A DNA stretch of 63,540 nt, counting the filler, from Octopus bimaculoides (lineage: Eukaryota), in NCBI RefSeq assembly GCF_001194135.2. It is 5 parts of 4 records of this genome, joined end to end, with 100 filler letters (N's around TTAATTAATTAA, not from the genome) between each part and the next. Parts side by side here need not be neighbours in the genome. Positions count along the whole stretch, not along the records: positions 1 to 21,729 come from NC_068989.1; positions 21,830 to 29,071 come from NC_069004.1; positions 29,172 to 50,731 come from NC_068987.1; 2 more parts are not named here. One strand, given 5' to 3'. The notes under the pieces are model-generated. The model was not told where the DNA came from and did not search any database. It saw nothing but the letters and a program-made list of their open reading frames with translations. A program made the translations under genes and the position numbers. This document shows positions 8,745 through 41,332 of this stretch, piece after piece. Each line of letters begins with the position of its first letter. Positions within the stretch are counted from its first letter, which is position 1.

Positions 8745-10530
8745 ACAACCTGTCTATATCTCGTGACTACAGCTTGTTTCGTTGACGACCTTAGGTTACA
8801 AGATATAGATGTGGATGAGCCGAGCGTTCCGCAGTGGACGTGGAGCAATAACGACGGCTCATGCAGATCTTATATAAATAGGCTATTCTTTAGAGATAGA
8901 GATAGGGATACTTTTAGTTATCCACAATTATGTATTGTCCCTTACACGGATCACAAATTTGTGGCGTGTGAGGTACATAGAGATAAATGTCATAGACAGG
9001 GACCCGGGTACCGGAAGGTGAACAAGTCTAATTTGACTTGTGAAACCTTCTGCGTCCGGATTAAGGAAGTACTACAGAGGGCGCTATGTGGCGGCATCAT
9101 TAATAATAGATGGTGGGAGGCCCTCAAGAGAGCCATTCGTTTAGAGTCTATTAGATTTAGCAATCAGCTAAGTTGAGATATATCTAAAATACAAGGGGAA
9201 TTATCTAAGAATTTAGACGAGGCAATGGAATCTGGCTGTGCATCTAGAGTGTTGGCGGCGAGAACGGCTTTGTACCGTCACCGCCAAGCCAAACGCGAAG
9301 GCTGCAGAGTTCGAGCTAAGCTACGTGCAGTGGGACGAGAAGGTATTAACGTTATCAGATGGGCGCGTCGTGTTGAGATTCAGAGGGGCAAAAACGTCTC
9401 TATAATGTCTTTAACTGACGAACACGGGCGGAAGATCTATGGGCAGGAAAAGATGCAAAAGGCCTTTCACCAGCATTTCGCCCGGTCGTTTGGGCAGGGC
9501 GACGCGCTTGAGCGTGGGGTGGCCCTAAAGGGCTTCCGCGCCGATGAGCCGCGGCTCTCGGCACGGGAGGCAGACTGCTGTGAAGGACTGAATACACCTG
9601 CGGAGGTCAAAGAGGAGTTGGCCGGGTATGCTGGGGACAAGTCGTCGGGAATGGATTGTCTACCCTATAAGTATTATCGTAGCATGCCGAACTTGCTGGC
9701 CAGCGTCTACACAAACCGGCAACACAATAGGAAGATTCCCAGCCCTGTGAGTCGGGGAGTGGTCAGAGAGGATCCGAACTTGAACTTTCCGGATCCTGCG
9801 GGGAGCTGGAAGAAACCGTTAGCACGCCGGGTGAAATACTTATCACTATTTCGTCTGCCGTTACGTTCTGAGTTCAAATTCCGCCGGAGTCGACTTTGCC
9901 TTTCATCCTTTCGGGGTCAATAAATTAAGTACCAGTTAATCCCTTTGTCTGTCCTTGTTTATCCCCTCTATGTTTAGCCCCTTGTGGGTAATAAAGAAAT
10001 AAGAAAGGATCCCAGCAAGGGTATATTATAAGTAACTACAGGCACATAACTCTACTCAAAGGCGTTAGCTAAAAGGTTGACGCGTGTCGTGCAGAAACTT
10101 GTAAGGAAGGCGCAGACATGCACTATTCCAGGACAATTTTCACCTTATACGCTACACCTTAGACAGCGTGGGTAAATTAACCGGCAAAGGTGGGGCACTG
10201 GTCCATTTAGACAAAGCAAAGCTTTCGATAGGGTAGACCACCAATACCTGGCGGCGGTCCTTGAAGAGCCTGGGCTGGGCCTGGATTTCCGTGGTTGCCA
10301 TTTATAGCGGCATCAACATCACCGTCTAGGTAAACGGTTACTTATCGGAGCCGTTTCAGATCAAGCGCTCGGATCAAGCGCTCGGTTCTGTATGTATTGG
10401 CTCTTGAGCCATTACTGCGGAAGTTGGAGAATCTGGGGGCATCCCCAATGGAATCGGATGCAGTAAGTCTGTCTCTGCCTATGCGGATGACGTCACCATC
10501 ATCGTGTCCAATTAAGCTCAGTTACCTTGC
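8745..10530 (+). mobile_element. L1/Tx1-clade LINE ORF2 fragment X1 (APE endonuclease C-terminus, linker, RT up to YADD), pseudogenised
   Basis: Translations give WTWSNNDGSCRSYINR...PYTDHK...GPGYRKVN (APE end), KAFDRVDHQYL, and SAYADDVTIIVSN*AQLPC (RT). Frameshifts and stops are present. Confidence 0.92.
9798..10005 (+). mobile_element. SINE family B inserted in the LINE
   Basis: The sequence runs GCGGGGAGCTGG...GAGTTCAAATTCCGCC...AGCCCCTTGTGGGTAATAAAGAAATAAG. AGGATCC is duplicated on both sides (9769 and 10006). Confidence 0.9.
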
Positions 10531-11370
10531 TTAGAGTTGCTCGCGGAAACGGTGACAGTTGGAGAAACAATGATGAATGTGTGGGTAGAGGGTAGAATCC
10601 CGTGTTGCTATAAATGTGGCCAAAAAGGCCACATTAGAGCGGACTGCCCTCTGAAAAATAAGCCAACCCAGGAAAGAGCAGAGAAGGAACTGGAAAGGAT
10701 AGAAGAAAGAAATGAGGAAGATGGATGGCAAGATACGGGAAGAAAACAGGGGAAGAGGAAAAGGACAGCTTAAGTGAACCCCAGCCCGTACCCACCTCAC
10801 CCATACCCTCTCAACCCCACCTCCTCTTGCAGACACCAAACCCACCCATTCCCCTCCGACACAAAAAAGAAAAAAAGAACAGCAGTCACACAAAAAAACC
10901 GCAGAACGACCTTCCCACTTGTTTTTTTGCGCCTTATTAAAAGGTGTAAAAAAGGATGTGGTAGATAAGCTTGTGCAATGGAAAGATGTAAAAGTGATAA
11001 ACATTAAGGGAATGAAAAAAGAAAAAAATGATTTTAGGCGTATTGGTGCCAGGACACAGAATGAAAATAATAAGAAACTGTAAAGAAAGCGCGGAATACG
11101 GACAAAGAGTATTCGACATAAATGAAGTACCGCACGGAATAGATTATGATAAATTACTGGGCCTATATGGCATTAACTTTAATTGGATATGAAAGGACAA
11201 TAATGCCGCTGAAGTGGGGTTTGTGGAACATTCTTCATATATCATTATCATGTATCATTCATATTTTCATAATTGTATTTTAATTGTTATATGACTCCAC
11301 ATGTCTTGTGTTGTCCCCTCTATGTATGATATTTTTGTTGTTGTAAAGAAATAACCTCTAGCCGAACAAT
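10531..11370 (+). mobile_element. Tx1-like ORF1 (gag) C-terminal half plus 3' UTR (H2), with no ORF2 between them
   Basis: It encodes LELLAETVTVGETMMNVWVEGRIPC and a CX2CX4HX4C knuckle (CYKCGQKGHIRADC), then a K/E-rich tail. The 3' UTR resembles 41080-41332 and ends in CGAACAAT. Confidence 0.8.
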
Positions 11371-11373
11371 TAT

Positions 11374-11548
11374 TCTGTGCTGATGAAGGGAAATAACCCG
11401 GAAATCGCGATACATAGATATTGTTTTGAGCTGAGTGGGAATGCTAGATTCCCTTGCTCGAAAATATAAGGACACAGCTCGTGTCGTATTGCCAGCTTGA
11501 GACGATGTCTCCTGGGGCTAAATTACAGCAACATTCATCCTAAACCAG
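11374..11548 (+). ncRNA. 175-bp hammerhead-ribozyme module, right copy, intact type I (PLE-like minimal) HHR at 11374-11418
   Basis: The sequence is TCTGTG (stem I), CTGATGA, A, GGG aaataa CCC, G, GAAA, TCGCGA, TA, CATAGA (stem I', one G-U pair). Helix III is the palindrome ATCGCGAT. Cleavage is predicted after AUA at 11412. Confidence 0.85.
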
Positions 11549-12649
11549 GACTGCCTTGTTATGTTGGCAAAATACTGTTGCTGAATATCTCTCGTGAGAT
11601 TTAAAAATAGTAATTTTCTAACTTCATTTCTTTATTCCGAATAATTTTTTCCCAAAATCTGACTACTACTCACTGTTAGTAGGTCATTTTCCTACTTCCG
11701 CATTTGAAATCTATTCAAATGGTCTTTAATTTCGAACTTCCCATGAAATACTAATGGTATACGAGTGGTGTACTGTACAGCAATCGACTGCATTCCTTTT
11801 CTGGTTATACTTAGTCCGATATTATACTTAGTTCGAAGCCATTATTTCATCCGCCTTCAGTCAGTAACACAAAGGCTGCAGTTCTGAAGTTGATTAAATC
11901 TGCACAAAATCTTATGTGTGTAGCCGGGGGTGTAAAAGTTCGAAGCAATTCTTATATCGTTTCAGGAACTTGTATCCAACATGTAACATCATTAAATATT
12001 AATGTGCTGAAAACTGTCTGTAATAATTAGATAATTTAAATTAGATTTTTCCTAATACAAAGTCGCCATTATTTAAGGTATATTATGCTATGCTGAACAA
12101 CAATATATCAAACGTTTGTGGAACATATGTACGATACGTGTACATTGTGCTAAACAATAAGTGTCAAAATGTTTATCATCATCAATATGACTTACAGAAT
12201 ATTTTTAGTTTTCTACGAGCGAAGGAGATGAAGTAATAACATAACATTTTCTTCAGAACAACTTAAGTTATTAACAGTTAATAAGCTTTACTACAATGTA
12301 AATGGTTAAATGGCTCCTGAAGTAGAGCATTTTTCTCATAAAATTTGGATCCGTGTCGACCTGTGTTCACACTGTGCTTACTCTACTATTAGCAAAATAG
12401 CGACTAAGTATATTAAAAAGTACTCTTGGCAGTCTCACCTTTACACAGTCCTTTGCAATCCTTTAGCCAACATCCATTCCCTTTTATGGGCTAAAATACG
12501 TGTGTAATTATTGCTCTTTATCTACTCGTTGCTTATATTTCCCATTAAACAACTTATCTATTAGAGCTCATGAATCATACCTGGCATATTTTTAACTCCT
12601 GAATGTTATGTATTACTTTTCAGAATAAGTAGAAAACAAAAAGTACATA

Positions 12650-12785
12650 GGCGCAGGAGTGACTGTGTGGTAAGTAGCTTGCTAACCAACCACATAGTTC
12701 CGGGTTCAGTCCCACTGCGTGGCACCTTGGGCCGGCCAAAACCTTGTGAGTGGATTTGGTAGACGGAAACTAAAAGAAGCCCGTC

Positions 12786-12864
<79 letters not shown>

Positions 12865-13068
12865 TGTTTGTGTGTCTGTGTTTGTCCCCACACCATCGCT
12901 TGACAACTGATTTTGGTGTGTTTATGTCCTATTCATTTAGCGGTTCGGCAAAACCGACCGATAGAACAAGTACTAAGTTTACAAAGAACAAGTCCTGGGG
13001 TCGATTTGTTCAACTCAAGGCGGTGCTCCAGCATAGCCGCAGTCAAATGACTAAAACAAATAAAAGAA
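12650..13068 (+). mobile_element. SINE family A, full length with long internal (TA)n
   Basis: GGCGCAGGAGTGACTGTGTGGTAAG...GGTTCAGTCCCACTGCG...AAGAAGCCCGTCG(TA)n...GCGGTGCTCCAGCATAGCCGCAGTCAAATGAC. Confidence 0.95.
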
Positions 13069-14999
13069 TGACAGACTCCTTAATGTTATTACATTCAGTG
13101 TTTCGACAGCAAGTTAGTAGAGGACAGAGTAAAAAAGAATTATACAAGTTTATTTCTGGGCTCACATATCGTTAGATTTGAAATTGTCTCTTGATCTTCC
13201 TGAGTTAATACCGTAAATTGCAGAAGTATATAGTGAGAGAAATACATGCGGATATCTTCAGAATTATACATGGTAACTAATAAATAGGTTTTGATTTTGT
13301 AGGTGCATAAGCATAAAAAGATATGTAATTGAAAGATATGTAATTGAAAGATATGTCTAAATTGTTTTTATGTTTCAGATTTGAAATATTACAATTACAA
13401 TTTTTGTGCCTGTTTCAGTATAACTGCTTATGGTATTGGTGTTGTAATGCGATAAATTTCGTTGATATAAAATATGTTTGATAGCAGTATAAATTTTGAT
13501 GATTAAACGCGCCACTTTTCTTTGCATTTTGCGTATATTAATTTCTTAATACAACCAAAGTAGAAATGCCTGGAATGCCTGCTACGGGCAGAGTATTCCC
13601 TCTGATAGCTTATCAAAATCACACATCTTAGAAATGTAAGCTCTTAAGAAAGTGCAACACGGAATTTCCGGAATAACAGATAACATAAGTGTTTGGCAAG
13701 ATAACTACGTTCATCTTATATGCCAACGTTATATAAAATAACCAGTGCTTTTGTTATTCTTGTAAGACGAGACTTGATCGGTACAGCAACTTTGTAGCTG
13801 GGTGATAAATCTAGCGTCAGTTATCACGATAGTTATAATTATCCATGCGCTAAACGGAGCATTCAACATACCTAACTACGTTAGGATATTTTTTTAAATT
13901 ATGTTTATGATGGATCCAGTTACCGCTGATTATTTCTATATAATGTACACCAATTATAAAAATAGGGTCAAAGCTACCTAGTACATGATGATAAAATAGT
14001 AGCTGATGTAATCCTAAAAAAAAAAAAAAGATCATAACTCGGCATTGATAGATGCTTATACATCAATTACTGAAACAATAGAATCCCCCAGGCAATACAG
14101 CTTACAACAGAGTTGTTTCTTTATAGTTTTTTATATTATTGGTTTACTATAGAATTCTAGTTTTCGTCCCATAACACTTTCTTTCGTTGCTAGCGGTACC
14201 TAAATCAAGTGCAGCCTGTCCCACCCTCAGTCTGACCATAGGTGATTCCTTCCAGTGAAAAAGAACTGTTTTTAGTGACCTCTAAAAATAAAAACAATAA
14301 AAAAACAAAAACATGACTTCGCTAGAATTTGAAGTCATAAAGCTGTAACTACCGGAATGCATTCTTTTGATACTCTATCAAATCCCCACCTCTGTTTATG
14401 AAGAAGTAGGCCGGTGAATAAATTCTAAGTACTGTGTAATGTGAACAGAAACTAGATGAGACGACTCACTGTCAGCCTAACTCTTGATCTACAATGACCA
14501 ACATAAAATTGTTTCAGTGTTTAGCGTGTTCTATAAGCAAAACACAAGAGGAGAGTAACTGCATTTTAGTATCTAATATCATCCAGCATGCCTTTCATCT
14601 TTCCATATAAAATAATACGCGGCTTGTATCAGATCAGATCAATTTATCATGGCTTGAATCGCTACTATATTCCTTTCCTTACAAATTGATGACCTAATAT
14701 AGTATTCATTTCAATAACTAAATCTACTACTCCTAGATAACAGCAAAAATCCACGCAAATTATAGTAACAAAAACACACTGACAGCACAAAGCAGATTTT
14801 GTTCTTCCTCTGATCGAGCAGCTATTATCAAAGGTTTTCCGTCAGTTATCTACGATCTGTTGTCTATCTAGAATTAATCTTCTTCTTTAAGGCAACGACG
14901 TCAAGAGGGAGAATTGAATGAACATGTAAATTATTTCTTGATAAAGATATATTACTGTCTGTCTTTACTAGCACAATCACCGACACCTTGAAATCCTTT

Positions 15000-15830
15000 T
15001 GGTGTTTACTGAAGACAAGCTAAGTCTATTTATCTCTCACTCTTTCTCATCTTACACACATCAAACGGTCAATTTCCTACTCTCAGTTCCGTCTCCGTAG
15101 GTTCTCTATTGGCGACCATGCCATAGAGACAGTCTCAACTCATAGCTCTCCCCTTCACCTAAAGGTGGTACCTCACTATTATCTAAGCTGTCCTAACCCG
15201 CACTGCATCCATCCCTCACTTACCCGCCCCCTTTCCACTTACCTACCATTCCTCCATCCTACCCATCCAATGCACAATTTTACGCGCTCTCAGCGAACTC
15301 CTATCCGAATCCATCACCTTCCGCGTCTGCACCAACTTGCTTCTCCATTGCTTCAACTCCCCCCAATACTCCCGGAACTCAATCTAGCCACTTCTGTTGC
15401 TGTCCGCCACGCTGTACCCGTCTTTTCCTCTCTAACACCGTCGTCTTCACCACTACCCATGACTGCTTCTCCCATGTCACTAACTCCTTTAATTGCACTT
15501 CCAGGAATCTGATTTACACCAACCTCTGCTTTATTTGCCAGTCACCTGTACATTTGACAAACTGGCTGACATATGGCAGGGGTTGCAGTTATCCCTCTTG
15601 CCACTCACGCCTCTGGCAACCGCTTTCTACTTCCGGTAACTTCAGCATCAGATTCGATTGTTCTTTCTCTCTATAATTTTGTTCTAGTCTATTTGCTCTG
15701 TAGAAGAGTCTATGCTTGAAACGTAAAAGAGTTTACTTTCTATTTTTCTTGAGCGTAAACCTAATACACTTTCTTCTTCTTTTACCTCACCATCGTGTTA
15801 TAATTTTTGCATATCATATACCCATACATA
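15000..15830 (+). mobile_element. Highly decayed GC-rich Penelope-like remnant (GIY-YIG trace plus HHR relic)
   Basis: 15480-15575 reads NSFNCTSRNLIYT..CFICQS, then (frameshift) HLYI*QTG*, i.e. a decayed LYIGQTGR. An HHR relic CTGTAGA-A-GAG tctatg CTT-GAAA-CG-TA lies at 15698-15725. Boundaries are approximate. Confidence 0.6.
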
Positions 15831-18299
15831 CATATANNNNNNNNNNNNNNNNNNNNNNNNNNNNNNNNNNNNNNNNNNNNNNNNNNNNNNNNNNNNNNNN
15901 NNNNNNNNNNNNNNNNNNNNNNNNNNNNNNNNNNNNNNNNNNNNNNNNNNNNNNNNNNNNNNNNNNNNNNNNNNNNNNNNNNNNNNNNNNNNNNNNNNNN
16001 NNNNNNNNNNNNNNNNNNNNNNNNNNNNNNNNNNNNNNNNNNNNNNNNNNNNNNNNNNNNNNNNNNNNNNNNNNNNNNNNNNNNNNNNNNNNNNNNNNNN
16101 NNNNNNNNNNNNNNNNNNNNNNNNNNNNNNNNNNNNNNNNNNNNNNNNNNNNNNNNNNNNNNNNNNNNNNNNNNNNNNNNNNNNNNNNNNNNNNNNNNNN
16201 NNNNNNNNNNNNNNNNNNNNNNNNNNNNNNNNNNNNNNNNNNNNNNNNNNNNNNNNNNNNNNNNNNNNNNNNNNNNNNNNNNNNNNNNNNNNNNNNNAAA
16301 ATATATATAGTACTTTTTCTACTTCGTGGATTTTCACCTATCGCGGGTGAGTTTTGAACGTAACACTCGCGATAGTCGAGGGAGTATTGTAATCCTTTCG
16401 AAGTATAAATTAATCTGTCGATACGGTACATAACGCGTTAGGAATGAAAGCGTATGAGTGAAAGTATGAACAAGTATAAAATGCAGAGATTCATAACTTA
16501 AATAAATGTAATGAATATTAATGGCGTCTACGAATTTTTAGCTTTAAAAAAAGGCTCAATAACAATCTCGTCTCTTGTAACTATGAGTGTCTAGTTAGAT
16601 AATTGTATTTCATGTGTCATATCCTACTTCTACCTATATTCAATAATGTGTAATATTTTGTATAGGAAACGGAAATATGCACAAATTCACCACAAGAAGC
16701 CACTGATTAAATGAAAACACCAATAAAAGTTATGAGTTGCGTTAATGCTATTGGAATTCTAGTCAACACTATATGTACTCATAGGTGTTGCATTGGCTAA
16801 TTAGGCAAGTATGTTAAAATACCCACTTTAGATTGGTGCAGAAATGGATGGTATATGATTACAGTATACAAACATGTGTATCCCTTGTGATTTAGATACT
16901 TAAACCAGACAGGTTTTTGATTGAAAACACTACTAGTTTTTATCTTTCTTTTGAAGTATTTATGTAAAAAAAAAAACAGATTCCGCAGGAATTGAATATC
17001 CCTGTAATGTTATTTAAAGTATTTTTAATGAAAAACATCCGCTTAGCTTACTAATTTTGAATTTCCTATGTTGATGTAATGAGAGATTTCCCTTAGCCCA
17101 GGAAGGGAGTCAGGAACATTGAAACTAAACTCTATTTTATTGCAGTACATTGAAATCTATTCTATAGATTGGATGAAAGGAAAAATAATCAACATGAGCG
17201 AGGTTTGAACTACGAACGGCATCATACTTCTAAGCTGGTAACCTTTGTATACTGAGAATATTCACAATAAAATATGCATCCATGCATTTTCAAGGCCTGG
17301 TTGATGCACGCATGTGCTTGTGTGCAAATTGATGCTCACAGACACTCAGAAATATACATTTGTGTTAATGTGCATACATACATCTGTTTCTATTAGGATA
17401 AGCACTCACACACTTTAGTATATACACATACATATACATAGGTGTATCTTTACAAAGACGTGCATATATTTATGCAAATATGCACACACACATTTGCAGA
17501 TACAGATGTCAATCGAAAATAAAACACTAGCAAACGCATATACATACATATATGCAGGCATAGACAGAAAATTTGAACATCACGTTCTGGAACTTTTAAA
17601 AGATGAAGAATAGGAAGGAATGATGAGAAAATTCATTCTCATCTTTTAAAGCAGATACGCATTTCACCTGGGTAGATACAATCACCACTGAAAAAAAAAA
17701 TCAATATATTTGATAATGGAAAGTTGAAAAGCTTTCTGCAAATGATACAATTGTCAGTTGAGAACGATAATTCACGTAGACTCTGTTTATTTCAAAGAAA
17801 GAGAATTTTATGAGAGAATTATCATAAGAAGAGAACAACTAAGACCATAAAATGAAATGAGAAATAATTTTTTTAAGAAAATAAGAATTTGCTTCATTAA
17901 GATTTATAAAAAAAATGTCTTTCTTGTTTAATCACAGATTAAATTTTCAACGAAAAGAAGCTAAACATAATTTTTAATAATTCGGAATGTAAAAATGTGA
18001 AAGGATTTTAACATGTTCGAATATTCCGTACTGATGATGTGATTAATGATAAAAAAGACGTTGTAGATTGGAGCCAGTTACACGAATTGCTTGATCAGGT
18101 TTAGAACAAATATTCTGAAAGAAAAATTTGGTCCAGAGTTGTTGCGATATTGATTCTGTGTCTATTGATATTTCACAACCGAGAGATACGACAAGGAGCG
18201 AAATGTATTTGAGGATATATTTCATAATTTAATAAAACAAATCTTCTCTTGAAAAGACCAAATCTAGTTTTTAAAAATTCTGCAAAATGTTCTCGATAA

Positions 18300-18400
18300 T
18301 CTTTCTTTTATGAAACCGCCTTCTGCTTTGATGACTGCTTCGACGCGGAACCTGAAGTTCTAAAACCATTACAGTTGCGGGTAATTTAGTGTGCATTACT
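18300..18400 (-). mobile_element. Tc1/mariner transposase extreme C-terminal relic
   Basis: The minus strand reads FRFRVEAVIKAEGGF, resembling the Tc1/mariner C-terminal RxEAVIKAxGG motif. Confidence 0.5.
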
Positions 18401-18539
18401 CAAGGGACATCAGAAGGAACTGCACATAACCATTTATCATTCATGTTAGAATTTTGGTCTTTTTCAAAGTTTTCTTCATCACCAAAGCATGCTATATTCG
18501 TAAAGACGTTTTTGCCTTAAGTAAATACTTGGCACGGCC

Positions 18540-18700
18540 TAAACGGTTTTCCTGTCTTTTGCAGACATTAATCAGTATCTCCGAAGGATGAATGTTAAAG
18601 TCAATCTGGGCAAGATTTGAAATTAGAATGTGAGGAGTCGCAAGAAATAACGCAACGAGTTCTTTTCCCGGCGCTCCAACGGCTCTGCTAACTCGTCACC
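18540..18700 (-). mobile_element. SINE family B, degenerate
   Basis: GGATGAATGTTAAAGTCAATCTGGGCAAGATTTGAA...CCCGGCGCTCCAACGGCTCTGCTAACTCG resembles the reverse complement of the family B head. Confidence 0.55.
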
Positions 18701-19705
18701 TTACTATACGCTAAATATACGTATACATTACTTTAAAAGTAGATCTAATAAAATTATTCACATTATTCACTTGGCCACGGGTTTCCACACGTTATGTGGG
18801 GATGCGTGACTTCTTCTTTAGCGAAACATTTCGTTTTACGTTACTTCAGTTCAAACAGATGAAAATGAGTTCCGATATTAGGCGGTAAGTTAACTCTGCG
18901 ACAGATCGGCGTCCTGTTCAAGGGAAAGTATTGTATTCTCAGTCAATTACACGCTGTGGAAACCAGATTAGGCTCCAGCATTATGAATCGTATCGTGCAT
19001 TACATACCGAAATCTAAAGTAAATTCGTTCACATTAAAAACCAAATAAAGGAATGAGAGGATGTAGAAAGCATGACCTGCAATTTTGGGATTTCTTCTTC
19101 ATGGCTGAGACAGAATAACTTGTGATATTTGTCTCAACTGCCTTAGTTCTGAGGTCAAATTTTGCCGAGAGAAAAGCTGGTTTCCATATGTGCAGGATGT
19201 ATAAATAAAGTACTCGGTAGGTATAGTGACTGACACTTTCCTTCGTTGTATTTGGTTAAATTTCATTGCTAAAAAGTGACGTAGGGATATAATCTCTTCC
19301 CACAGAATACCTCCCGCAAAAATACCCGATATACTACTGAAATCATTGGAAAAGAGATCAACGTGGACGGCATGACGAGAACGAAACAAAGAAGGAAGTT
19401 AGTGATATCCTACTTAATGTAGTGTGGGCGCATGAAGTAGAAAATTGAATAACCAATATCTTTTAGGCTAATGTTGGAAAATACGGATGATAACGTTCAG
19501 ATACTTTATATCAGCTCAGCAAATCATAACATCCTGTGACTTTACCAAACTAGCAATAACATAAGTATTGAAACACAATTATCTTCAATAGTATCACGAG
19601 AAACTATGATAATGACAGAGAGAAAGTACACGGTGACTATATCAACACAATTTTTTACTGTTGAGTTAGTGTTATTCAACATAAGGCAGCGACGAAAAGT
19701 ATTTA

Positions 19706-19786
<81 letters not shown>

Positions 19787-19800
19787 AATAATAAATAATA
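19706..19800. repeat. (TAA)n microsatellite
   Basis: Direct reading. Confidence 0.95.
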
Positions 19801-20047
19801 AATGATGTGTGATGAAGAACAGAAAACATGAAAACATTAGCTTAATGAATGTTATTATTTCAATCTGAGTTTGGCAAGGAAAAAAAATCAATCGTATTTT
19901 GGTTCTCTCAGATGTACGGATTTCTCCGTACCTTAATGTGGTTGATAGTGAGAGGAGTACAGTATAGATGGAAAGTGCCATCTTATATAATTTCAGTTTA
20001 GGACAAATGCTAAAATTTCCAGCACTAAAACAGACACTAGGTCTGTT

Positions 20048-20871: not shown

Positions 20872-20935
<64 letters not shown>

Positions 20936-21847: not shown

Positions 21848-21896
<49 letters not shown>

Positions 21897-24769: not shown

Positions 24770-25300
24770 TACTTATTTTAGTCGTTTCTTTTGCCGAAAA
24801 GCTAAGTCACAGGGGTGTAAACAAACCAAGTAGCGGATGTGGACAAACGCAAGGCAAACACATACTCGTACACACACACACAAACATATGTGCATGCACA
24901 CACGTCCATATGACGGGCTTCTCTACAGTTTCTTATTTCTTTATTGCCCACAAGGGGCTAAACATAGAGGGGACAAAAAAAGGACAGACAAAGGAGACTA
25001 AGTCGATTACATCGACCCCAGTGCGTAACTGGTACTTAATTTATCGACCCCGAAAGGATGAAAGGCAAAGTCGACCTCGGCGGAATTTGAACTCAGAACG
25101 TAGCGGCAGACGAATTACTGCTAAGCATTTCGCCCGGCGGGGTAACGTTTCTGCCAGCTCGCCTGTGGCTTCCCCACAGTTTCTGTCTACCAAATTCACT
25201 CACAAGGCCTTGATTCGCTCGGAGCTATAGCAGAAGGCACTTTTCTAAGGTCCCGTGCCGTGGAACTGAATCCAAAATCACATTCTGGCAAAGCCAGCTT
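24770..25300 (-). mobile_element. SINE family A interrupted by a family B insertion
   Basis: The 3' part (TCTTTTGCCGAA, GGACAAAC, TATGACGGGCTTC) lies left of the insertion. The 5' part (GTCTACCAAATTCACTCACAAGGCCTTG) lies to its right. Confidence 0.8.
24933..25164 (-). mobile_element. SINE family B, full length, nested, with ~17-bp TSD
   Basis: It is flanked by GGCTTCTCTACAGTTTC (24916-24932) and GGCTTCCCCACAGTTTC (25167-25183). Confidence 0.92.
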
Positions 25301-28770: not shown

Positions 28771-29024
28771 TCTTTTGCCGAACCGCTAAGTTACGGCGAC
28801 GCAAACACAGACACACAAACATATACACACACATGCATATACATATGTATATATACATGTATACGACGGGCTCGTTTCAGTTTTCGTCTACCAAATCCAC
28901 TCAAGACTTTGGTCGGCCCGAGGCTATAGTAGAAGACACTTGCTCACGGTGCCACGCAGTGGGAATGAACCCGGAACCATGTGGTTGGTAGGCAAGCTAC
29001 TTACCACACACCCACTCCTGCGCC
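28771..29024 (-). mobile_element. SINE family A (5' two-thirds)
   Basis: The plus strand ends GCTACTTACCACACACCCACTCCTGCGCC, the reverse complement of the family A head. Confidence 0.9.
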
Positions 29025-31115: not shown

Positions 31116-31356
31116 AATGTTTGAATCTATAACTTTTTGTTTGAATAAACACAAATAGAATTTTTTTTTAAGAAGATATCATGTGTGTGTAGAGATTCCA
31201 GTTTCTGGATACTTCTAGACATATAACACTATGCAGGATCTAGATTTTAGAGCATTCTCAATATCAAATCTTAACACTATCCTCTATAAGAGATGAATAC
31301 TGCGCGGTTTATCAGGCATTCAGTGATGTATATATACTTTAATTATGATATACAAA

Positions 31357-31411
<55 letters not shown>

Positions 31412-31541
31412 NNNNNNNNNNNNNNNNNNNNNNNNNNNNNNNNNNNNNNNNNNNNNNNNNNNNNNNNNNNNNNNNNNNNNNNNNNNNNNNNNNNNNNNNN
31501 NNNNNNNNNNNNNNNNNNNNNNNNNNNNNNNNNNNNNNNNN

Positions 31542-31581
<40 letters not shown>

Positions 31582-32134
31582 ATATATGTATGTATATACA
31601 GTTGTTCGGGCTAAATTTCACGATTTTTCAATCTGGTTTTTTAAGGAACAGTTTGAAATATTGGTGAACTGATGAACATTCAACGGCTTTGGAGAGCACA
31701 CAGTCTAGCTGACATGGAGGATCGGAAGCCAAATGTTACCGGTATCATGATGATCCTATATACAAGGAGACAGAGAAATAGAAACTTTTAATAATTTATG
31801 ACTTAACATGTTAGTTATGTAAACGGCTTCTTAGAGGTCTGACTTCATTATGATCGGTTCTATTATAGAAATGCAAACATTGACCCTAAACTTAACTAAA
31901 ATTGTAATATACGTCCTTTATAGAACATAAAATTCTGCAAGCAATTTAAATATACTAAAATGAATTCCAGAATAGAACTTTTCAGGAACAAAAAAGAATG
32001 TTTAGCCTACGTGTAGACTGGAAAATTAAAAATTAAATATGTGCACCCTGTTTTTCTAAAATAGGAACATATTAACGGAAAATATGTAATCAGAATTTTA
32101 ATTCATTTTCAGGATTCACGCAAAATAAGATACC

Positions 32135-32335
32135 AATTTCAAATTTTGGCACAAGGCCAACATGTTCGGAGAAGCGGGCAAGTCGATTACATCGACTCCA
32201 GTGCAAATCTTATCGAGTCGGAAATGATGAAAGGTAAAATTCATCTTGGTGGAATTTAAACTCAAGATGTAAAGAGGACAAAATGCTGCGAGGCATTTTA
32301 CCCGCTGTGCTAACGTTTCTGTGAGCTCACCACCT
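32135..32335 (-). mobile_element. SINE family B
   Basis: CAAATTTTGGCACAAGGCC...AAGTCGATTACATCGACTCCAGTGC...GGAATTTAAACTC...GCTAACGTTTCTG. Confidence 0.8.
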
Positions 32336-33070
32336 TTGCAAAGTGGAATAGAGGAGTGTGTCGTCCCACCAAGTGGAAAGTCATCAACCGTTAAAAAGCT
32401 CTACACTGAAATGTCATTATAACAAAATAAAATACTAATAGCTACAAATTGCATTTTGAATCTAGAACAATAGTAAGAAGAACACTTAAACCGTTTTATA
32501 CGGGTCAAATATTCGAGGACTGGAATTACCTCGTCTGTTATTCTGATTAACTCATGACAATTTCCATTAGAAATGAAGAGAAGGTAATGTTAAGGAACAC
32601 TATTGTTTTTTTTAGTTCATATTAATAGATTTCTTGGATATAAATCGGTTGCCGTGGTAATCATTTCTGGAATAAATATCGAAAATGTCAGCGACTTGTT
32701 AATGTTCTATTTGATTTAATAGCAATACAGATTAAGTTTGAGATTGATGTCCTAATGTGGGTGGATGTGTGCATGTTTCACCGACAAGGAGTCGAGCGTT
32801 ATCGACACAACTCTGGTTTGTTAATTAAAATATCCCAATATTTATAGACTTAAAATGACTCTATAGGTATATATACAATTTTAGGCTGTAAATAAGAATG
32901 TAAATAAAAACTGCCACTTTATTACCAAACCTAGTTTACCAGGCATGAATTTTCTATAAATACAATTTTCATCAACATTACTGCTTCTGACTGGCAAAAA
33001 TAGCTGCAAAAAGGAATAAATCATGTAACGTTACTTAGAATTCGCTACTATGTCCCGTGTNNNNNNNNNN

Positions 33071-33127
<57 letters not shown>

Positions 33128-35288
33128 CGCGTGCGAATGTATGTGTATGTGTGTGTGTGTGTGTGCGAGTGTGTGTATGTGAAGAGCTGTTTCTTAACAA
33201 AATTAAAAACCATCATGACCATGGCATGCTCTGTCTTTTTCTTTGGTGACTGGAGTAATGTAATCTGGGATAGTTGCCCAATAGAAAACGATTATTGACA
33301 AAGGGCGCTGTTGAAATTGAAGAGTTGAATTCTTTTTTTAATTTTATAATTACTGAAACATCTAGAATTCCCCTTCGATAGTAGATTGAACATTCTTAAT
33401 TAGTGTTGTTATTGGTTGATCGCATGGTATTCATGACCGAGCGAATATAACCAATGGCAAATGGTTATTGCATGCTTTCGCACTTCTGCGTCTAAAGTGT
33501 CAATAGAATAATTATCATTGGCGAATGGTAGTTAAAATAAATAATTTTATACATTTAGTGGCATTATACCATTAATACAACTGAATATTGTAGCAGTTAT
33601 AAACGATGCGGTGGAATCAGTGAGTGGCAAAACCCTTACGAATAGCTGTAGTAAGTGCACTAATTTATGTTTTCCAATATTTAAATCTGTAATAAGTTGT
33701 GATACCATATCACACTGAGACGCAATTTTCTTTTCAATTCTTGTGGGTTGAGAAATACAATTTGTATAGAAAAATCGTTTTAATACGCTCTCGGCATTGT
33801 TTGATATAATGTGAGAAATTTATAAATGTATTTTGTAGGATAAAGGTTATGTAGAGTAAGTATAATGGAATGGTAATGGTAGTGGGGGGTATTTATCTCA
33901 TTACCTTTAAAGATGCACCACGAGCATTATCCATTTAATACATAAGCCATCCCTATTGCATTTATACTGAGAAAATTAAGGCAAAGATTGTAAATACTTT
34001 AAGACATTTAGCCTGAACCTTCGATGATTAAGTGTAATAAAGATAGATGTAATTGTCGTATATGGCTGAGCACATGTAAAGGAAGATAAGTATTCTCGAA
34101 TTAATCAGCTATCAACATTACGCAAGTGTTACTTAGTTTATTAATATACTAAATGTTGAAAGGTAACATCACTCATTGCATCTAAAATGTAAACGAAAAC
34201 TATTGATTTCCTTCATTCCAGCAGGCATTTAGCCAGACGCTTAAGAAGTTTACGTGGCAACTTGGCAGAGCCGTTTGTGTGTCAGATAGAATGATCGCGA
34301 TATGTGTTTCGATAGGTGTTCAAATCGCACAGATGTTAACTTTGCAGTTCATCTTTTCAGATGTGATTTAAAAAAACAAAACAGGCCGGGGAAATAGTTG
34401 CACTGGAAAAACGTTCTTCGGATGCTTTACAGTATTTGTTTCGGTTCATTGTTTTTTAAGTTCAAATCTCGTATGGCCTACTTGCATGGTCTACTTAACT
34501 TGACGCCTGGGCGAACACCACCACCTGACTTTGGGGAAACATTTGCGGATTCTCCTCTGCTGCAAGCATGCGCTCTAGCCTCTGGCTTCAAGATATTTTC
34601 TTCCCACCAGTATCAGATTAATACTACGTTCTCCCCCCGCCCTATAATAAAACAAATTGTAACTATTTCTCAAATGTGTCAGTCGATTAGAGACTACAAC
34701 AATATCGAATATTTTGCCAAACAATCAACACGTATCATCAAATCTATTCGTTTCTTATTTAATTCAACATTATTTTAAAATTTTCGCTTTATGCACTGTC
34801 AACATAAATACAATGTATTTGTGTTTGTGCCATAATTATTTCATTTAATTCATTTAATATATATGTTTGTTATAATGTTATAATGTTATATTTCATTTAA
34901 TACATTCAATGATATATTTATGGCAGGTTTGTATATCCCAATTTATTAGTTTCATTATAGTTTAATATAAACATGAATAGAAACATAATTAGATGAATTT
35001 TACAGAGTTCATTTTCATATTTTATTTGTAAAGCTATTTATTTTTAATTACTATAATACTATTGTAGTTCATTTATTGAATATATGTATGTGTGTATGTA
35101 TGTGTATATATATCTATACATTCATATGCAGACAGTGATACAAATAAACAAATAAAACTACTTAGGTTTGATATACAAAATATATATATATATATATGTA
35201 TACATGTAAATAGAAGGAAAGTAAAGACTGAAAATATTTAGACGATGAATATTCAAGTATAAATACGTATCGTCAGTACGTATTTATC

Positions 35289-35687
35289 CGTCGTCGACTT
35301 ACGACCGATCAACTTTACGACGATTGGCGTGCCATTTCCCTGCAGCAACAATAAATAGTCCAGTTGAAATCTAATTGGTTTAATTTCTGCGAATGATGTC
35401 GACTAACAAACACTTCCACTAGGTTTGGTTATCGATCGCCAATGTTTTGAATGACTATCCTGTCGCGGAGACATCGAGGCAACCTCATAAATATTTATAA
35501 GAAAACTACTTTAGACTCCGAAATTTTTTACTAACGCCAATATTATAGTATAATACACAATGCTGTGTGTGACTTTTACCTGAGAATGTACCATTAGAAT
35601 GTAAAAATATAAAACCAAGCTATGTAGGCCTATAGACCGACTTGCGACCAGTTAGTTGGAATCAATTGCGGTCCTTAGTCGACGACG
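35289..35687. mobile_element. Putative ~400-bp MITE
   Basis: The terminal inverted repeat CGTCGTCGACT (35289-35299) matches AGTCGACGACG (35677-35687), extending to 17/19. The interior is non-coding. No clear TSD. Confidence 0.5.
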
Positions 35688-35729
35688 ACTTGCATATATT
35701 TATGTATTAACAGAGCATTTATACATATT

Positions 35730-35774
<45 letters not shown>

Positions 35775-35777
<3 letters not shown>

Positions 35778-37385
35778 CGTCAAAAGTACGGAATTGCAAT
35801 GGGAACGAAAGTAGCCCCTGTTCTTGCGGAATTCACCTTATATGAAGTATCACTTCATAAATATGGTTACCCATTTTACCTCCACATAAGACAAAATTGG
35901 AAACGATATCTGGATGACTGTTTTATCATTTGGAAGGATAACATCAACAACCTTTTGGATTTAAAATCAACAGTAAATGATATAAATAGTAACATTCAAT
36001 TCACAATGGAATATAACAAAGAACAGCTCCCATTTTTAGACATCATGATAAAAAAAGTCAACAATCAAATCATAATTGACATCTATTATAAACCAACTGA
36101 TTCTAAACAATATCTCCTCTTTAGCTCATGCTACCCGAAACACGTCAAAATAAATATCCCTTTGAATTTGGTAAAAACAATTTGCATAATATTGTCTGAT
36201 AGAACAACTCGGGACCTTCGTCTTCAAGACCTCAAAACAACACTTACTGAAAGACAATATCCACCCTCACTTGTGTACGAGGGAATTAAACGTGCCAAAA
36301 AAATAGACATAAATCACTAAGAACAACAAAACATAACACCACAACTCATCTAGAAACACTACCATTTATATCAACATACAAACCTAGGACAGTGAGGCAT
36401 TCAACACTATTGTGCAAAATCTTCCTTTACTAACTAGAAATCCAAAAATGAACGACATCCTGAAAATGCACAAACTCATCAAATGCAAAAAGCAACACAA
36501 ATCGCTAAAAAGGCTACTAACAAATGCGAAGCTCTACAAAAAAACCACGAGACCAACAGTTAAAAAATGTAGACGCTTAAACTGTGGAACCTGCCCCAAC
36601 TTACTTGAAGGCTCGGATTTCCTTTTCAAACAAGGACAGAGGTTCACAATTAAAACTCGCTTCACTTGTGCTTATGCAATAACCTGCTCGGGTTGCGGAC
36701 ATAGCTATATTGGACAAACGAGTATGACCTCGAGAAGGAGAACCACACTACATAAAGAGCAAATCCGTTTCCCGCAGTACAGTCAAATTCCTCTCAGTGA
36801 ACATATAGAAAATGTGCAAATAACATCAAACCAAATTTCACAGTCTTCCCCATCTACCAGTGCAAAGACACAACCACTCTACAAGAACGTTTAAATAGAG
36901 AAACTTTTTTTCATTGAAAACTACAGAACACGTCCTAATATGCACGCATAAATACTTTTACATTTTTACATATTTCAATTCATGATTACATCACCTTTTT
37001 TTCCTTGTTTTGGATGTGTGTATGTGTGTACATATATATATAGATTCCCCGCCCCTTACCGAAAGCTGAACAGTTATCTCCCTTGCCCACAACAGCAACA
37101 ACAGTAATAACTATAACCAATTACCTCCCCGTATTCTTCTACATGTGAAGCCATTCACTCGTAAATATCATCACGCACAACATGGACAAAAATTTCTTCT
37201 TAAGAAAATACATATTCAAATAAGTAAACCATAATATCATGAATAGCGAAAGCGAAACCGGTCGATATATTAAAAATTATATTAAAACTATGTAAAGTGT
37301 GTGTACTTTCCTTTTTTCTTTTGTTTCATTTCTTATATATATTACAACTTACGACGTGGGGATAATCGAAATTTCTCTGTCTCTG
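35775..37385 (+). mobile_element. Penelope-like element, 5'-truncated: RT C-half, GIY-YIG endonuclease, and 3' region with HHR relic
   Basis: Translations give YRQKYGIAMGTKVAP...WKRYLDDCFIIW...LPFLDIMI...YYKPTDSKQYL (PLE RT) and C..CGTC...AITCSGCGHSYIGQT...HKEQIR (GIY-YIG). GAAACCGGTC is at 37253-37263. (TA)n lies on both sides. Confidence 0.93.
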
Positions 37386-39369
37386 TTACTATATATATAT
37401 ATATNNNNNNNNNNNNNNNNNNNNNNNNNNNNNNNNNNNNNNNNNNNNNNNNNNNNNNNNNNNNNNNNNNNNNNNNNNNNNNNNNNNNNNNNNNNNNNNN
37501 NNNNNNNNNNNNNNNNNNNNNNNNNNNNNNNNNNNNNNNNNNNNNNNNNNNNNNNNNNNNNNNNNNNNNNNNNNACCTCCATGTTGCTGAGGTGTGTGCA
37601 GCATTGTATGTTCAAATCATTTGAGCGCTATTGTTTTCTACACTGAGAATCTGTTTTGACTCAACATGCGCACATGTGCACACATATATACATGTGCACC
37701 TGTGCACACAGACTTGTGTGCGTATACATATACACAAACGTATATTCATACATTTTTCATATTTGTTTATCTCATCACTCCTGATAAAATGTTGCTAAAG
37801 TCCCCAGAATTTCTAACTCTGGTAACACCGTCCATTGGATGTTTAAAAATGGCTGTTAAATCTAAATGTGTTTTTCACTATGACTGTGGCATAGGCGTCT
37901 ACAGAATACTTGATCGTAGTTTCGATGCTGTTATTTTCTGAAGAATTTTATTTTGGTTTAATTTAATATACCTATCATTCATTGGTTTTCTTTTTTAACA
38001 GAACAACTTACAGCAAAATATTTGCCTAGTGTGGGTTGTCTATATTAGACATTCGCTTGACAGTTATTTCTGAATATTCAAATGAAAGTTCCTTTCAGAC
38101 AAATGGAGTATGTATTACAAATACACTAACCTCATGTACTGCGGGTACATATTGAATGCATTGTTTTCCGAATGAAGTCATTTCGTTACGCAAGGAAGTT
38201 TCAGGTCGTCAAGGAACCACAAATATGTTTGATAATATTCTAAAATATAATTCAGATTACTCATGCATTTTATAAAGCTGCAAATTTTGGAACAGTGTAG
38301 TTTCAGGAAATAATAAAATATGAATAGCTTCTAAGTTGAACGATGATAATAAATTTGATAGAGCTTTGTTTGTTGATACCAAGCCCGTTGTTATATAGCT
38401 ACTAAATTGATGAAATTTTCCGACAAATTTCTCTCATAGAAAAAAAGAAAAGATAAGTTTCTGAGATCTTTCAATAGTAATCTCTGCTCTATTGGCACAT
38501 ACACATATAACAGAGATTGGGTGATATGCTCAGCAAACATGCATATGAAGTGCATAGTAAGTACGGTGGTACACCATTCAAGAAACTTAAAAGGGTTATG
38601 TCCAAACTTAAGGCAGACATTTCAAAGTAACAATGAAAGCTTCAATGATCATTGAAGCAGCTTTCTCGAAAAGAATCATCCGTATTTCATCAAACTGCAT
38701 TAGATCAAAACAATGTTTAATCGAAAAAAATCATTGTGATATTATATCTAGACATACTTATGATCCATTGTTAACGCAGTTAACCAATTCAGTTTTCTCT
38801 GAAAGGACACACCCAGCCTCATTGGAATGTCAGAATATGTTGTTGCCAAAACAGTAAACATAAGAATCAAGTGCAGGTGCATAAAATTAGTCTTATGTAT
38901 GCCCATGACTATTTACATGTGTATGGCTTTACAATCTTATGAGCATACAAATATACGTTCCTTTTTATATTATTTACATATTTACAATTTCATTGTAACC
39001 ATAATAGTAGTGAAATACATTGATTTAATACGAGTCTTATCTCAGTAGTTATGTACAAAAATATTTCCAACTTTAGAACAATGTATTATCAGGCTGAGAA
39101 AAAAGTAAGCAACGTTTTAAACCATAAAGAACTTGTATCGGAATTTTGCAGAGTTTTAAATTAATTTTTTTTTTGTTTGCAATTGTCTGATAATAGATAT
39201 AGACTTACCCAAATGCATCAATAAATTAATATTGATATTTTTTGCCGTTGCTGCAATCATTTCTAACCGAGCTGTTCATAATTTTTGTTTGTGCGTCGTT
39301 CGGAAGGTTAGTGAAAAATTGTTGAATTACATTTGCTATTAATTGTTGTGTCTTGAGACACTTGTTTTT

Positions 39370-39786
39370 GTTGCCCTACGGCAGTTTTGTTAATGTTGTC
39401 CCCCTTGTATAAAGGGGGAAGCGCATTATTTGTGTCTTCATGATGTATGAGGATTTGAATTCTTCAGACGTCGTTACGTCTGAAGAAGAATTACTGAGAA
39501 GTTTGGATATTGCAGACCAGAAGATGGAGACAATGAAGGTGGTAAAAAAGTGAATTTTGCAGCTGCGGCTGGTGAAACAAGAGAAGAGATTTGTTTTAAG
39601 AAGGTGGAGTTGAACAAGTACAGGGAAATCTTGCAAACGGAGGGGCACGAAGTAAAAGTATCTCCTCCTAGTGAAATTACAAAGGGCACGCAAAAAAAGA
39701 TAATAATATATAGAACGTATAGTTTGAATGCAAAGAGAATAGAGATAATTGTAACTAGAGAAGGCTTTGAGACCCATCTAGCAGGA
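39370..39786 (+). mobile_element. Tx1-like 5' UTR plus ORF1 N-terminal half (H1)
   Basis: The ATG at 39440 starts MMYEDLNSSDVVTSEEELLRSLD, with a frameshift, then KKIIIYRTYS...VTREGFETHLAG. It joins in frame to 10531 LELLAETV. Confidence 0.6.
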
Positions 39787-41332
39787 AGTTACCTACCTTG
39801 CCAGGGAGAGGAAATACGATGCGGTAGCAGGGGCAAAAGTTAACAAGGACAAGTCCATCGGCTTGCCCCTCGGCACCTGGAGGAGCAAGTCGATATCGTC
39901 CAGTGTCGTGGGTCACTGGACAGATGGTCCTGCTAAGTTGTTTGGAGTTTGGTTTGGCCCAGACTCTCAGACGAAGAATAACTGGAGCGAGGTGACATAC
40001 AAGGTAGAGGCCGTAGTACGGAAGTGGTCCGGAAGACCCCTGTCCTTGAAAGGAAGGGCGGAGATGGTACAGATGTTCATTGCATCTGTAATCACTTACC
40101 GCCTGACCGTTGTCCCTTGCCCCGATTCGTGGCTAAACAAGTTGGAAGGACTCCTTTTCCGCTTTTTGTTGAAGGGAGGAAAGCAACTTGTAAGGCGCTC
40201 TGTTTCTTGCCAGCAACCGTTAAAGGGCGGGCTGGGAATGCCTTGCCTAATGATGCTCAGATATGCGTTGAGGCTAAGAAATCGCTGGCGCCACCTGGAA
40301 GGGAATAAAGCGTGGAGTCCTCTGGCAAAGGAATTCTTCCCACGACCGGTTTCAATAGAGAGATTTAAACCGTGTTTCATAAAAAGACAGAATCTGCTTT
40401 TATGGCAGAATGAGTGCCGACAGACACTCCCGCTGCTCCACAAGATGGGCAAGGCCGGCTGCGGGAATACCACCTCAGTGTTCTATGAAGGGCTGGTAGA
40501 GGTTAAAAATGATGACGTCCTAGGAGGGGCTCTGAGGTTCAGCGAGAACCAACTTACCAACCTGTTTAAAAAGACTTTCAGGCCAGGGTACTTGGACAAT
40601 TACCAAAAATCCTGACCTAGTAGTACTACAGGAACGGTTCACCTGTTCGCGATAAGTTGTCTAAGCACGGAATGTCAGTGCCACCGACATGTCCAAGATG
40701 CGAGCTGGATGATGAAACAGTTCAGCACGCTTTTGTACAACGTCGGGAGCTGTCTAGCTTGATACGTTACGTAGAACACATGTTGTCGCATCTAAGACGA
40801 GTACAGCTGTCGGCTGGATCTATAATAAAGATGGTACCACCAACTGGACTCCCAATAGAAGGTGAGGCGTGTTTACACTGTACGGCGGCAGTATTGAAAG
40901 TGTGTGTATGGCGAACTAGAATGAAAGGTTTCGTGACAGAGCCCTTCGTCTCTGGCCAGGGTTTGTTAACCTACTTCAGATACCATCTGAAGAGCAAGAT
41001 GGGGTTGGAGAGTGTAGAGAGAGTATGAGAAACGTTCGAAGCATGTGATGAGAAAGATGAGTGTCAGTAACCTAGCTTAATCATCAATGAAAGGAAAAAA
41101 GATAGTTGCTGGGCCTTACAGGCTGCCGGGTATGAAGTTTGAACTTGTTTCGTTTACTTTATTTTAAAAAAAAAAGGTAACGGAAATTCAAGTAAACTAT
41201 ATAAATTATATCTAAATTTTTAACGTTCATTCAAACTCATCTTAACATTTTTGTAATCGTTTCGTCCCGTAATGTTCCATCTGTGTATTGATTGTATAAT
41301 CATAATAAAGAATCCACCGCCACCCGAACAAT
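39787..41332 (+). mobile_element. L1/Tx1-clade LINE ORF2 C-terminal part X2 (post-YADD RT, C-terminal CCHC) plus 3' UTR
   Basis: Translations give LPC..YDAVAGAKVNKDKSIGLPLGTW...KLFGVWFGPD...LSLKGRAEM...KGGLGMP and CPRCELDDETVQHAF. The 3' end is AATAAAGAA...CGAACAAT. Confidence 0.92.

Follow-up and report, generated by a model that had tools for sequence, protein, structure and literature searches.

Two chimeric LINE units in the window

The window analysed here is a stretch of 63,540 nt from Octopus bimaculoides, filler included, made of five parts of four records (positions 1 to 21,729 from NC_068989.1 and 29,172 to 50,731 from NC_068987.1) whose neighbours need not be neighbours in the genome; all positions and distances are counted along it. 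Two units in which a LINE (X) meets an ORF1-bearing element (H) were found in it. By sequence inspection both joins lie in N-free contigs (7837-15836 for the left and 37575-47965 for the right), and 10 N-gaps separate the two. The four pieces all lie on the + strand, and the order X1|H2 ... H1|X2 reported in an earlier note was borne out on this gapped scaffold, on whose 10 gaps that order depends. The left unit and its flanks comprise:

8401..8545, +, SINE copy whose truncation point coincides exactly with the outer end of the left repeat copy (alignment with four other copies in the window)
8541..8715, −, left copy of an inverted repeat of 175 bp, with a hammerhead-like motif at its start (self-comparison)
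8716..8756, no strand assigned, fold-back head of X1, an inverted, hairpin-forming copy of 10160-10191 (sequence match)
8745..10530, +, X1, LINE ORF2 from the late endonuclease domain to 13 codons past YADD (alignments to an intact relative and P0003)
10002..10512, +, cluster of small indels beside the left join (frameshift count)
10520..10530, +, 11-mer at the end of X1, native X sequence reading Q-L-P-C (family loose-end consensus)
10531..11354, +, H2, 3′ part of an ORF1-only element with CCHC knuckle, AT-rich 3′ end and tail (PF00098, homologues)
11355..11373, +, stub of 19 bp, similar to H1 and H′ at their 5′ ends (motif search, sequence comparison)
11374..11548, +, right copy of that inverted repeat, again 175 bp (self-comparison)

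X1 corresponds to aa 163-700 of the ORF2 of an intact relative and to aa 3-468 of P0003, and harbours a SINE (about 9780-10001) whose target duplication was read by eye as 12/15. At 10530/10531 its reverse transcriptase piece passes directly into the zinc-knuckle ORF1 piece H2, which upholds the switch first described at this left join. The last 10 nt of X1 match the loose-end consensus of the family at 7-8 positions, and its last codons resemble the X2-type family, unlike P0001-P0004 (SDISEIEV there, for example). Frameshifts are clustered, 7 of 8 falling in 511 of the 2511 aligned bases (binomial P about 1e-4), and the indel load of X1 and X2 is unequal. H2 matches PF00098 (E 1e-6), has P0010, P0035 and P0071 as homologues, beginning at aa 102 of P0035 with 28/40 identical residues (70%, by eye) in its core, and gave no ORF2 match downstream. 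The stub behind it may represent the start of an element.

The two copies of the inverted repeat are 90.3% identical and bracket X1|H2 exactly. The fold-back head matches X1 10160-10191 at 28/32 positions (E 6e-6). A hammerhead-like motif in the repeat, with the CUGAUGA...GAAA core and helix I visible, occurs twice in the window and in none of 100 shuffles; its fold z values are −1.6 and −2.7, and hammerhead families were absent among 149 Rfam matches. Viral-contig and genome-contig scans found no family or orthologous DNA of the repeat segment. The missing tail of the SINE at 8401..8545 was not found in the four regions searched, and a candidate tail beyond the right repeat copy was rejected.

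The right join is a short microhomology

The right unit was examined with family contigs from four read runs aligned to the window, for which 28 records were listed, and comprises:

39140..39262 (left edge approximate), no strand assigned, Y, a high-copy repeat interrupted by H1 (contig depth)
39263..39818, +, H1, opening portion of an ORF1 with its 5′ end, which contains the 15-mer of 39787-39801 (family contigs, P0035)
39814..39818, +, right join, 5-bp microhomology common to H and X (family-contig ends)
39814..41313, +, X2, 3′ part of ORF2 (end of the reverse transcriptase, zf-RVT), 3′ UTR and tail (P0003, Pfam)
41314..41901, +, H′, 5′ piece from an ORF1 of a different subfamily, abutting the X2 tail (family contigs)
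41904..44368, no strand assigned, unique right flank, for which organisms B and C have orthologues (contig records)

H-family contigs fit the window through the 15-mer and up to 39818 in all four runs, with 2 of the 28 listed records ending at 39818, and contigs with T at 39787, 32 letters before the contig end, number 4, 5, 5 and 12 across the runs. X-family contigs begin at 39814, where 36, 36, 27 and 36 loose ends were counted. A second switch, from H1 to X2, is thus present as previously noted, and its site moves from 39787-39801 to 39814-39818. The 11-mer (10520-10530) and the 15-mer (39787-39801) stand where they had been placed, and neither recurs in the window; the latter is not the 11-mer with a 4-nt stutter: it is native ORF1 coding sequence reading QEVTYLARERKY against P0035, and the frame 39755-39826 (LEKALRPI*QEVTYLARERKY..) is identical to P0035 aa 6-28 at 14/23 residues (score 54). 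Since the right join is a 5-bp microhomology, the supposed 11-bp duplication does not exist. Splicing was rejected as its origin because the H match extends past any donor site. None of the contigs listed spans this join. The multi-copy junction family that would have marked it as a transposed chimera was not seen there: the family contigs leave the window at 39814/39818, and in the run labelled X2, summed depth is 91 at 39749 against 34.5 in the unique flank.

To the left, Y reaches a summed contig depth of 5,765-31,806 over two bins and its family departs from the window at 39243-39262; a continuation of Y behind H2 was rejected. The motif shared by 11357 and 39262 (9/11) was likewise rejected as a target duplication of H, the family contigs suggesting that it is the element's own 5′ end, and no target duplication was found around either unit. 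To the right, X2 is identical to P0003 aa 480-881 at 204/400 residues and matches PF13966. H′-family contigs begin at 41314, and H′, whose LERCLAPIWNKICY aligns to LEKALRPI*QEVTY of H1, ends at about 41901, about 20 nt (in ORF1 terms) from the position at which H1 is cut. One contig of run X8 links H′ to X (41650 to 40574). A joint from 39818 to about 41902 was absent among the 15 of 102 joints listed. The contig of organism B fits from 41904, and the 25 letters preceding that point fit neither the flank nor H′. In both runs of organism A, the unique flank at 38483-38936 has single-contig depth, with which an identical second copy would still be compatible. These runs also have zero depth over parts of 42115-43703, which was given no weight, since a hole of this kind proves nothing.

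Pairing of the element halves

The X family encodes an ORF2 with RVT_1 and zf-RVT domains, preceded in intact relatives by a CCHC ORF1, and these relatives form head-to-tail arrays of 6.5 kb; by this domain layout X appears to be a LINE of the L1/Tx1 type, the Tx1-like label being our assumption. Its summed depth reaches 82,335 against 35-63 in single flank contigs, a value that is not a copy number, and a third X-like piece lies at 58087-58353. The halves X1 and X2 had been said to abut exactly at LPC; the family consensus holds 20 more nt between the end of X1 and 39814, and about 20 bp of X are therefore missing. A register this close has a chance of about 41/3468, or 1.2%, on an ORF2 of 1155 aa, which makes it likely that X1 and X2 once formed a single LINE copy, now dead.

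Comparison with the family thus agrees with the proposed contiguity for X, whose halves are near-adjacent, and contradicts it for H. As H2 starts at aa 102 of P0035, at least 76 ORF1 codons are missing between H1 and H2, and an intact relative gives a gap of 92 codons when the anchors are set by eye; the in-frame gag join HLAG|LELLAETV dissolves, GFETHLAG being an off-frame reading. P0035 fits the end of H1 better than H′ (score 23 for the latter), which leans towards a pairing of H1 with H2. Given the contig of run X8, H′ may be the ORF1 of X itself. Between the two units there are 12 exact direct matches of at least 10 nt, 4 of which reach at least 11 nt, and a score as good as that of the pair formed by the ends of X1 and H1 was reached by 422 of 20,000 random pairs of X and H windows.

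Searches for relatives covered protein and DNA collections. A phmmer search gave 798 matches, of which six single-stretch ones among the 150 listed were used, and word-index searches with H1 and H2 gave 38 and 55 candidates, none accepted; atlas searches yielded no information. Scans for family copies found 0, 0 and 4 loci in viral contigs (the four probably chance 18-mers), 39 loci with generic knuckles (E 8e-6 or weaker) in metagenome DNA, and 0 loci in one set of genome contigs and 31 distant relatives in another. Host exons that could orient the 28-kb block were sought by a crude splice scan, with nothing convincing, and by Pfam in 300 of 305 filtered frames, with 3 matches, none usable.

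Origin of the two joins

The earlier view that one simple crossover does not suffice, with multi-break repair among its options, is likely right. We tentatively favour, at less than even odds, a route in which a piece of 2.1 kb (X2-tail-H′) left a tandem and came to lie within a different H copy 29 kb downstream. LINE X would originally have stood at the left locus, head to tail with an ORF1-only element; the piece would have been excised from this tandem and captured inside the ORF1 copy H1 by microhomology-mediated repair. The left gap would then have been closed as X1|H2 after resection, and the right end of the captured piece placed by ORF1-ORF1 homeology. On this account H2 would be what is left of H′, not of H1; the intervening 28 kb would be a bystander that never moved; and the 175-bp inverted repeat with the fold-back head would be the product of a separate insertion or repair event. 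The elements do run in tandem, X2 tail into H′ and H2 tail into the 5′-like stub, as do the intact relatives in their arrays, and the model can therefore dispense with a chance hit on an unrelated element. Scars of error-prone repair, the clustered frameshifts and the fold-back copy, lie beside the left join; the orientation follows with neither a flip nor an extra breakpoint within the 28 kb; and H′ ends near the homologue of the H1 cut, with the fit of organism B starting at 41904 after 25 unfitted letters. Against the capture, those 25 letters have other explanations, the inverted repeat is left unexplained, the 3′ part of H1 must have been lost, and H′ may be X's own ORF1, whereas H2 lacks a following ORF2. 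The better fit of P0035 to H1 than to H′, the absence of a joint from 39818 to about 41902 among those listed and of a listed contig across the right join also count against it.

The same all-plus order results from several routes that involve a small circle or none. One that we consider unlikely starts from an H-X tandem at the right locus that lost its middle to give H1|X2, the excised interval of 3-5 kb having circularised head to tail to give X1|H2; the circle would then have reopened between the H2 tail and X1 and inserted 28 kb upstream with an inverted duplication of 175 bp. Such a course accounts for both joins and their orientation, for the 19-bp stub as the start of an X unit and for the repeat that brackets X1|H2 exactly; P0035 fits H1 as well as H2, and a 5-bp microhomology deletion is natural within a tandem. 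Its re-entry would leave a deletion join and a circle join, and a hammerhead-bearing repeat could point to machinery of the Penelope type, an idea no more probable than the course itself. It requires, however, circularisation, lossy reopening and local re-entry, leaves the position of H′ unexplained, and loses at least 228 bp on the H side, against the 1-27 bp reported at circle junctions (PMC7450558). Slightly more doubtful again are two independent chimeras, X1|H2 from deletion in an X-H tandem and H1|X2 from a 5′-truncated or template-switched X insertion, with the register coincidental. X is high-copy with a third piece in the window, a further H′-to-X join exists elsewhere on a contig, the indel loads of X1 and X2 differ, and template-switch chimeras of LINEs are described in the literature; yet a 20-bp register arises by chance in only about 1.2% of cases, the same two families would have to meet on one strand within 30 kb twice, and both units lack a target duplication.

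Inversions make the remaining non-circular routes. An improbable one has X (+) and H (−) 28 kb apart, with inversion of the interval giving reciprocal joins on opposite strands, followed by a 2.66-kb staggered-break inversion that turned X1|H2 round and produced the inverted duplication of 175 bp. A repeat of 175 bp and 90% identity fits the staggered-break signature given in PMC1885836 (46 bp-1.9 kb, mean identity about 88%), and intrachromosomal inversions between octopus species are reported in 10.1101/2023.05.16.540928. Against this, the route takes two events, one break must have fallen by chance within an H element, the missing 5′ part of X was not found reversed beyond 11548, and H′ is again unaccounted for. 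A single ordinary inversion combined with a flipped contig would also give reciprocal joins on opposite strands, and 10 N-gaps lie between them; with contigs of 8-10 kb and individually sized gaps that suggest paired-read scaffolding, and with the inverted repeat and H′ left unexplained, this is the most improbable reading of all. Hardly better placed is the circle of tens of kb that had been proposed, whether a 29-kb circle opened in H that entered X or an X2...H1 interval excised and reinserted. The all-plus order is the topology expected of one circle insertion, the 20-bp loss from X is within the junction indels of 1-27 bp reported in PMC7450558, and 10.1101/2022.06.22.497135 cites a case of 28 kb, that of tilapia vasa. 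But the 11-bp duplication is absent and the H halves, short of 76-92 codons, are not cleanly rejoined; no donor copy was found, the flank at 38483-38936 having single-contig depth (still compatible with an identical copy); the closing junction was not seen in self-comparison of the window; and the inverted repeat ties the left flank of X1 to the right flank of H2, which a 29-kb insertion would take from two different loci.

Relation to known systems

H2, from a cephalopod family that we take to be L1/Tx1-like, differs in this respect from HAL1. It nevertheless seems HAL1-like, sharing with these half-L1, ORF1-only elements an ORF1 with its own 3′ end and no ORF2 (PMC5753468). With duplications and translocations mediated by circular DNA (human cSDPs, cattle KIT, tilapia vasa) the locus shares the swapped order of halves and microhomology or short indels at joins; here, in contrast, donor and closing junction were not found, at least 228 bp are lost on one side, and smaller routes without a circle account for the locus equally well or better. 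The 175-bp, 90% inverted repeat at both segment ends is a feature shared with staggered-break inversions (Ranz et al. 2007, PMC1885836), whereas the duplicated sequence here is probably a repeat-family member rather than unique DNA, and the inversion is putative. L1-associated local rearrangements (10.1101/2024.12.14.628481) and microhomology-mediated repair resemble it in few-bp microhomology, the fold-back copy, short deletions and an inverted duplication near LINE ends, whereas this is an old germline fossil in whose internal joins neither a poly-A nor an endonuclease site was identified. An inverted 3′-end copy flanking the whole unit and a hammerhead-like motif are shared with Penelope-like insertion units that have an inverted pLTR (PMC8557442); the body here, in contrast, is LINE/ORF1 and not a Penelope ORF, and Rfam gave no hammerhead match.

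Significance

The locus is likely an ordinary rearrangement scar, left when breaks among dead retroelements were repaired locally, and no host gene was shown to be affected. Joins that look reciprocal need to be set against the family consensus before a duplication or a circle is inferred from them. The small circle, if true, would provide a base-resolved invertebrate case, with a deletion scar beside the site of re-entry.

Pieces of LINE ORF2 and ORF1 in the window

The window consists of animal DNA that is AT-rich, full of repeats and broken by 23 N-gaps. Its elements have their closest named homologues in Octopus bimaculoides, O. sinensis and Argonauta, which makes an octopus the likely source. 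Two ORF2 parts (X1, X2) and three ORF1 pieces (H1, H2, H′) were delimited:

8745–10530, X1, part of LINE ORF2, aa 3–468 of homologue P0003
10531–11354, H2, knuckle half of ORF1 with its own AT-rich end, without ORF2 behind
From ~39263, H1, inside a high-copy repeat
39814–41313, X2, part of LINE ORF2, aa 480–881 of P0003
41314–41901, H′, ORF1 5′ piece directly behind the X2 tail

X1 starts at aa 163 of the 1155-aa ORF2 of an intact relative, and a third X-related piece, a 3′ fragment, lies at 58087–58353 (−). Similar tails were found at the ends of H2 (11305–11354), two SINE copies (9950–10002, 24930–24982) and X2 (41270–41313); this shared tail type suggests that the SINE and the ORF1-only element use an X-type RT. 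Intact relatives form head-to-tail arrays of ~6.5 kb. X-related LINEs occur at 31 loci (L044–L074) in 10 contigs of a genome labelled uncultured Arenicella sp., in head-to-tail arrays of ~6.4–6.9 kb; L054 has intact ORF1 (678 aa) and ORF2 (1155 aa), and five loci gave no Rfam matches. This is likely DNA of a host that was binned with a bacterial genome.

Other features of the window comprise a Penelope-like RT end with endonuclease remnant (35679–36950, by eye, no Pfam match), a Mariner Mos1 HTH remnant (6205–6513, PF17906, E 7e-11) and a weak RING-H2-like match in a degraded frame (38440–38652, PF12861, E 2e-4, under cut-off). Next to the latter, 37693–38192 shows extra contig depth in organism A, and organism B carries a 90% orthologue of it. 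An inverted pair (7432–7549 and 46623–46739, 83% over 118 bp, left copy ending at a gap) is probably a repeat family. At 42115–43703, both organism-A runs have no contig depth in five bins covered by organisms B and C, which may reflect a filter effect or a deletion allele.

The right join is a 5-bp microhomology

The pair of chimeric LINE/ORF1 joins is real. The earlier note placed the second switch at 39787–39801; H-family contigs, however, aligned through this 15-mer up to 39818 in all four sequencing runs, and a frameshift-aware alignment independently matched LEKALRPI*QEVTYLARERKYDAV with VEKVLRPIRQEI-YLARGPKFGVV of the ORF1 homologue P0035 (14/23 identical). This makes the 15-mer part of the ORF1 coding sequence, with the gag reading GFETHLAG off-frame; the actual join is a 5-bp microhomology at 39814–39818, which removes the supposed 11-bp duplication. 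The likeness between the 15-mer and the left 11-mer (10520–10530) carries little weight: among 20,000 random window pairs, 422 reach an equally high score, and four exact direct matches of at least 11 nt exist elsewhere between the two units. Nor do the gag halves rejoin in frame, since H2 starts only at P0035 aa 102, leaving at least 76 ORF1 codons missing (92 as suggested by the intact relative).

The comparison with four runs revealed no visibly amplified family carrying the right join. Because none of the contigs listed spans it, confirmation in other animals is indirect: both organism-A runs contain the unique flank 37611–39228 with 0 substitutions, and only these had non-T letters at 39787. 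The cut in H′ lies ~20 nt from where the H1 cut would map by homology, and the orthologous organism-B flank begins fitting at 41904. The frame at 41902–41949 (GEIEP*ILKVDEYVFY, no significant alignment) may continue ORF1 of H1 or H′. Contigs of B and C also fuse Y, the high-copy repeat at 39140–39262, to sequence of the H type (39243 to 39324 or 39431); Y may therefore be a target of H, or the two may travel together.

X1 and X2 probably share an origin

The 11-mer is native X sequence terminating X1. X-family contigs had loose ends before 39814 in all four runs (36, 36, 27 and 36 contigs; agreement 0.76–0.81), and their consensus matched the last 10 nt of X1 at 7–8 positions, then continued for 20 nt before X2, agreeing with the 20 residues from YADD to the tyrosine where X2 resumes in 4/4 YADD-bearing homologues. 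The X1 end and X2 start are 20 bp apart (chance ~1.2% for a given pair, by arithmetic), and the last X1 codons match the X2 family type. A common origin is therefore quite probable, but the halves do not abut exactly as proposed, 20 bp being missing.

X1|H2 lies between the copies of a 175-bp inverted repeat (90.3% identity), which come within 30 and 19 bp of it; the SINE outside the left copy is cut exactly at the repeat edge. The opening motif of the repeat we take to be hammerhead-like; no Rfam hammerhead family was among 149 matches. At its head, X1 has a fold-back copy of its 10160–10191 stretch (28/32). Seven of the eight X frameshifts fall within the 511 bp preceding the left join (P ~1e-4, the test being chosen after seeing the cluster); this stretch (10002–10512) also carries a 13-bp tandem duplication, whereas the remaining 2 kb of X has a single frameshift.

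Origin of the two joins

As X and ORF1 pieces lie in tandem here, the swapped order is attainable by moving only 2–3 kb. Our weights on the mechanisms are judgements. Tentatively, the best explanation is that a linear piece, X2–tail–H′, would have moved rightward; against it, P0035 fits H1 better than H′, one contig ties H′ to X, and a further event must be invoked for the inverted repeat. The run-X8 contig fusing H′-type (41650) to X-type (40574) sequence points to a further copy, elsewhere, that is chimeric or has lost internal sequence. A small circle carrying H2...X1 leftward is unlikely, and independent chimeras, which require a 1% coincidence, slightly more so. Two nested inversions, which would also produce the joins as seen and account directly for the inverted repeat, we consider a little less probable again.

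Sources on circle-mediated duplications describe swapped order, a closing junction and 1–27-bp indels (PMC7450558; PMC7188851; 10.1101/2022.06.22.497135), the last also naming linear-fragment insertion and MMBIR as alternatives. Inverted duplications are described for staggered-break inversions (PMC1885836), L1-linked repair (10.1101/2024.12.14.628481) and Penelope-like insertions (PMC8557442), and HAL1 in PMC5753468. The excised and re-integrated circle of tens of kb favoured by the earlier note is now improbable, since the duplication and exact rejoining are gone and the inverted repeat would join flanks that should, on this reading, be unrelated. We rate a flipped contig as more improbable still. 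The search for host exons by which the block between the joins could be oriented yielded none. We found no paper on this locus in searches not designed to exclude one. The two joins likely derive from one broken LINE copy.
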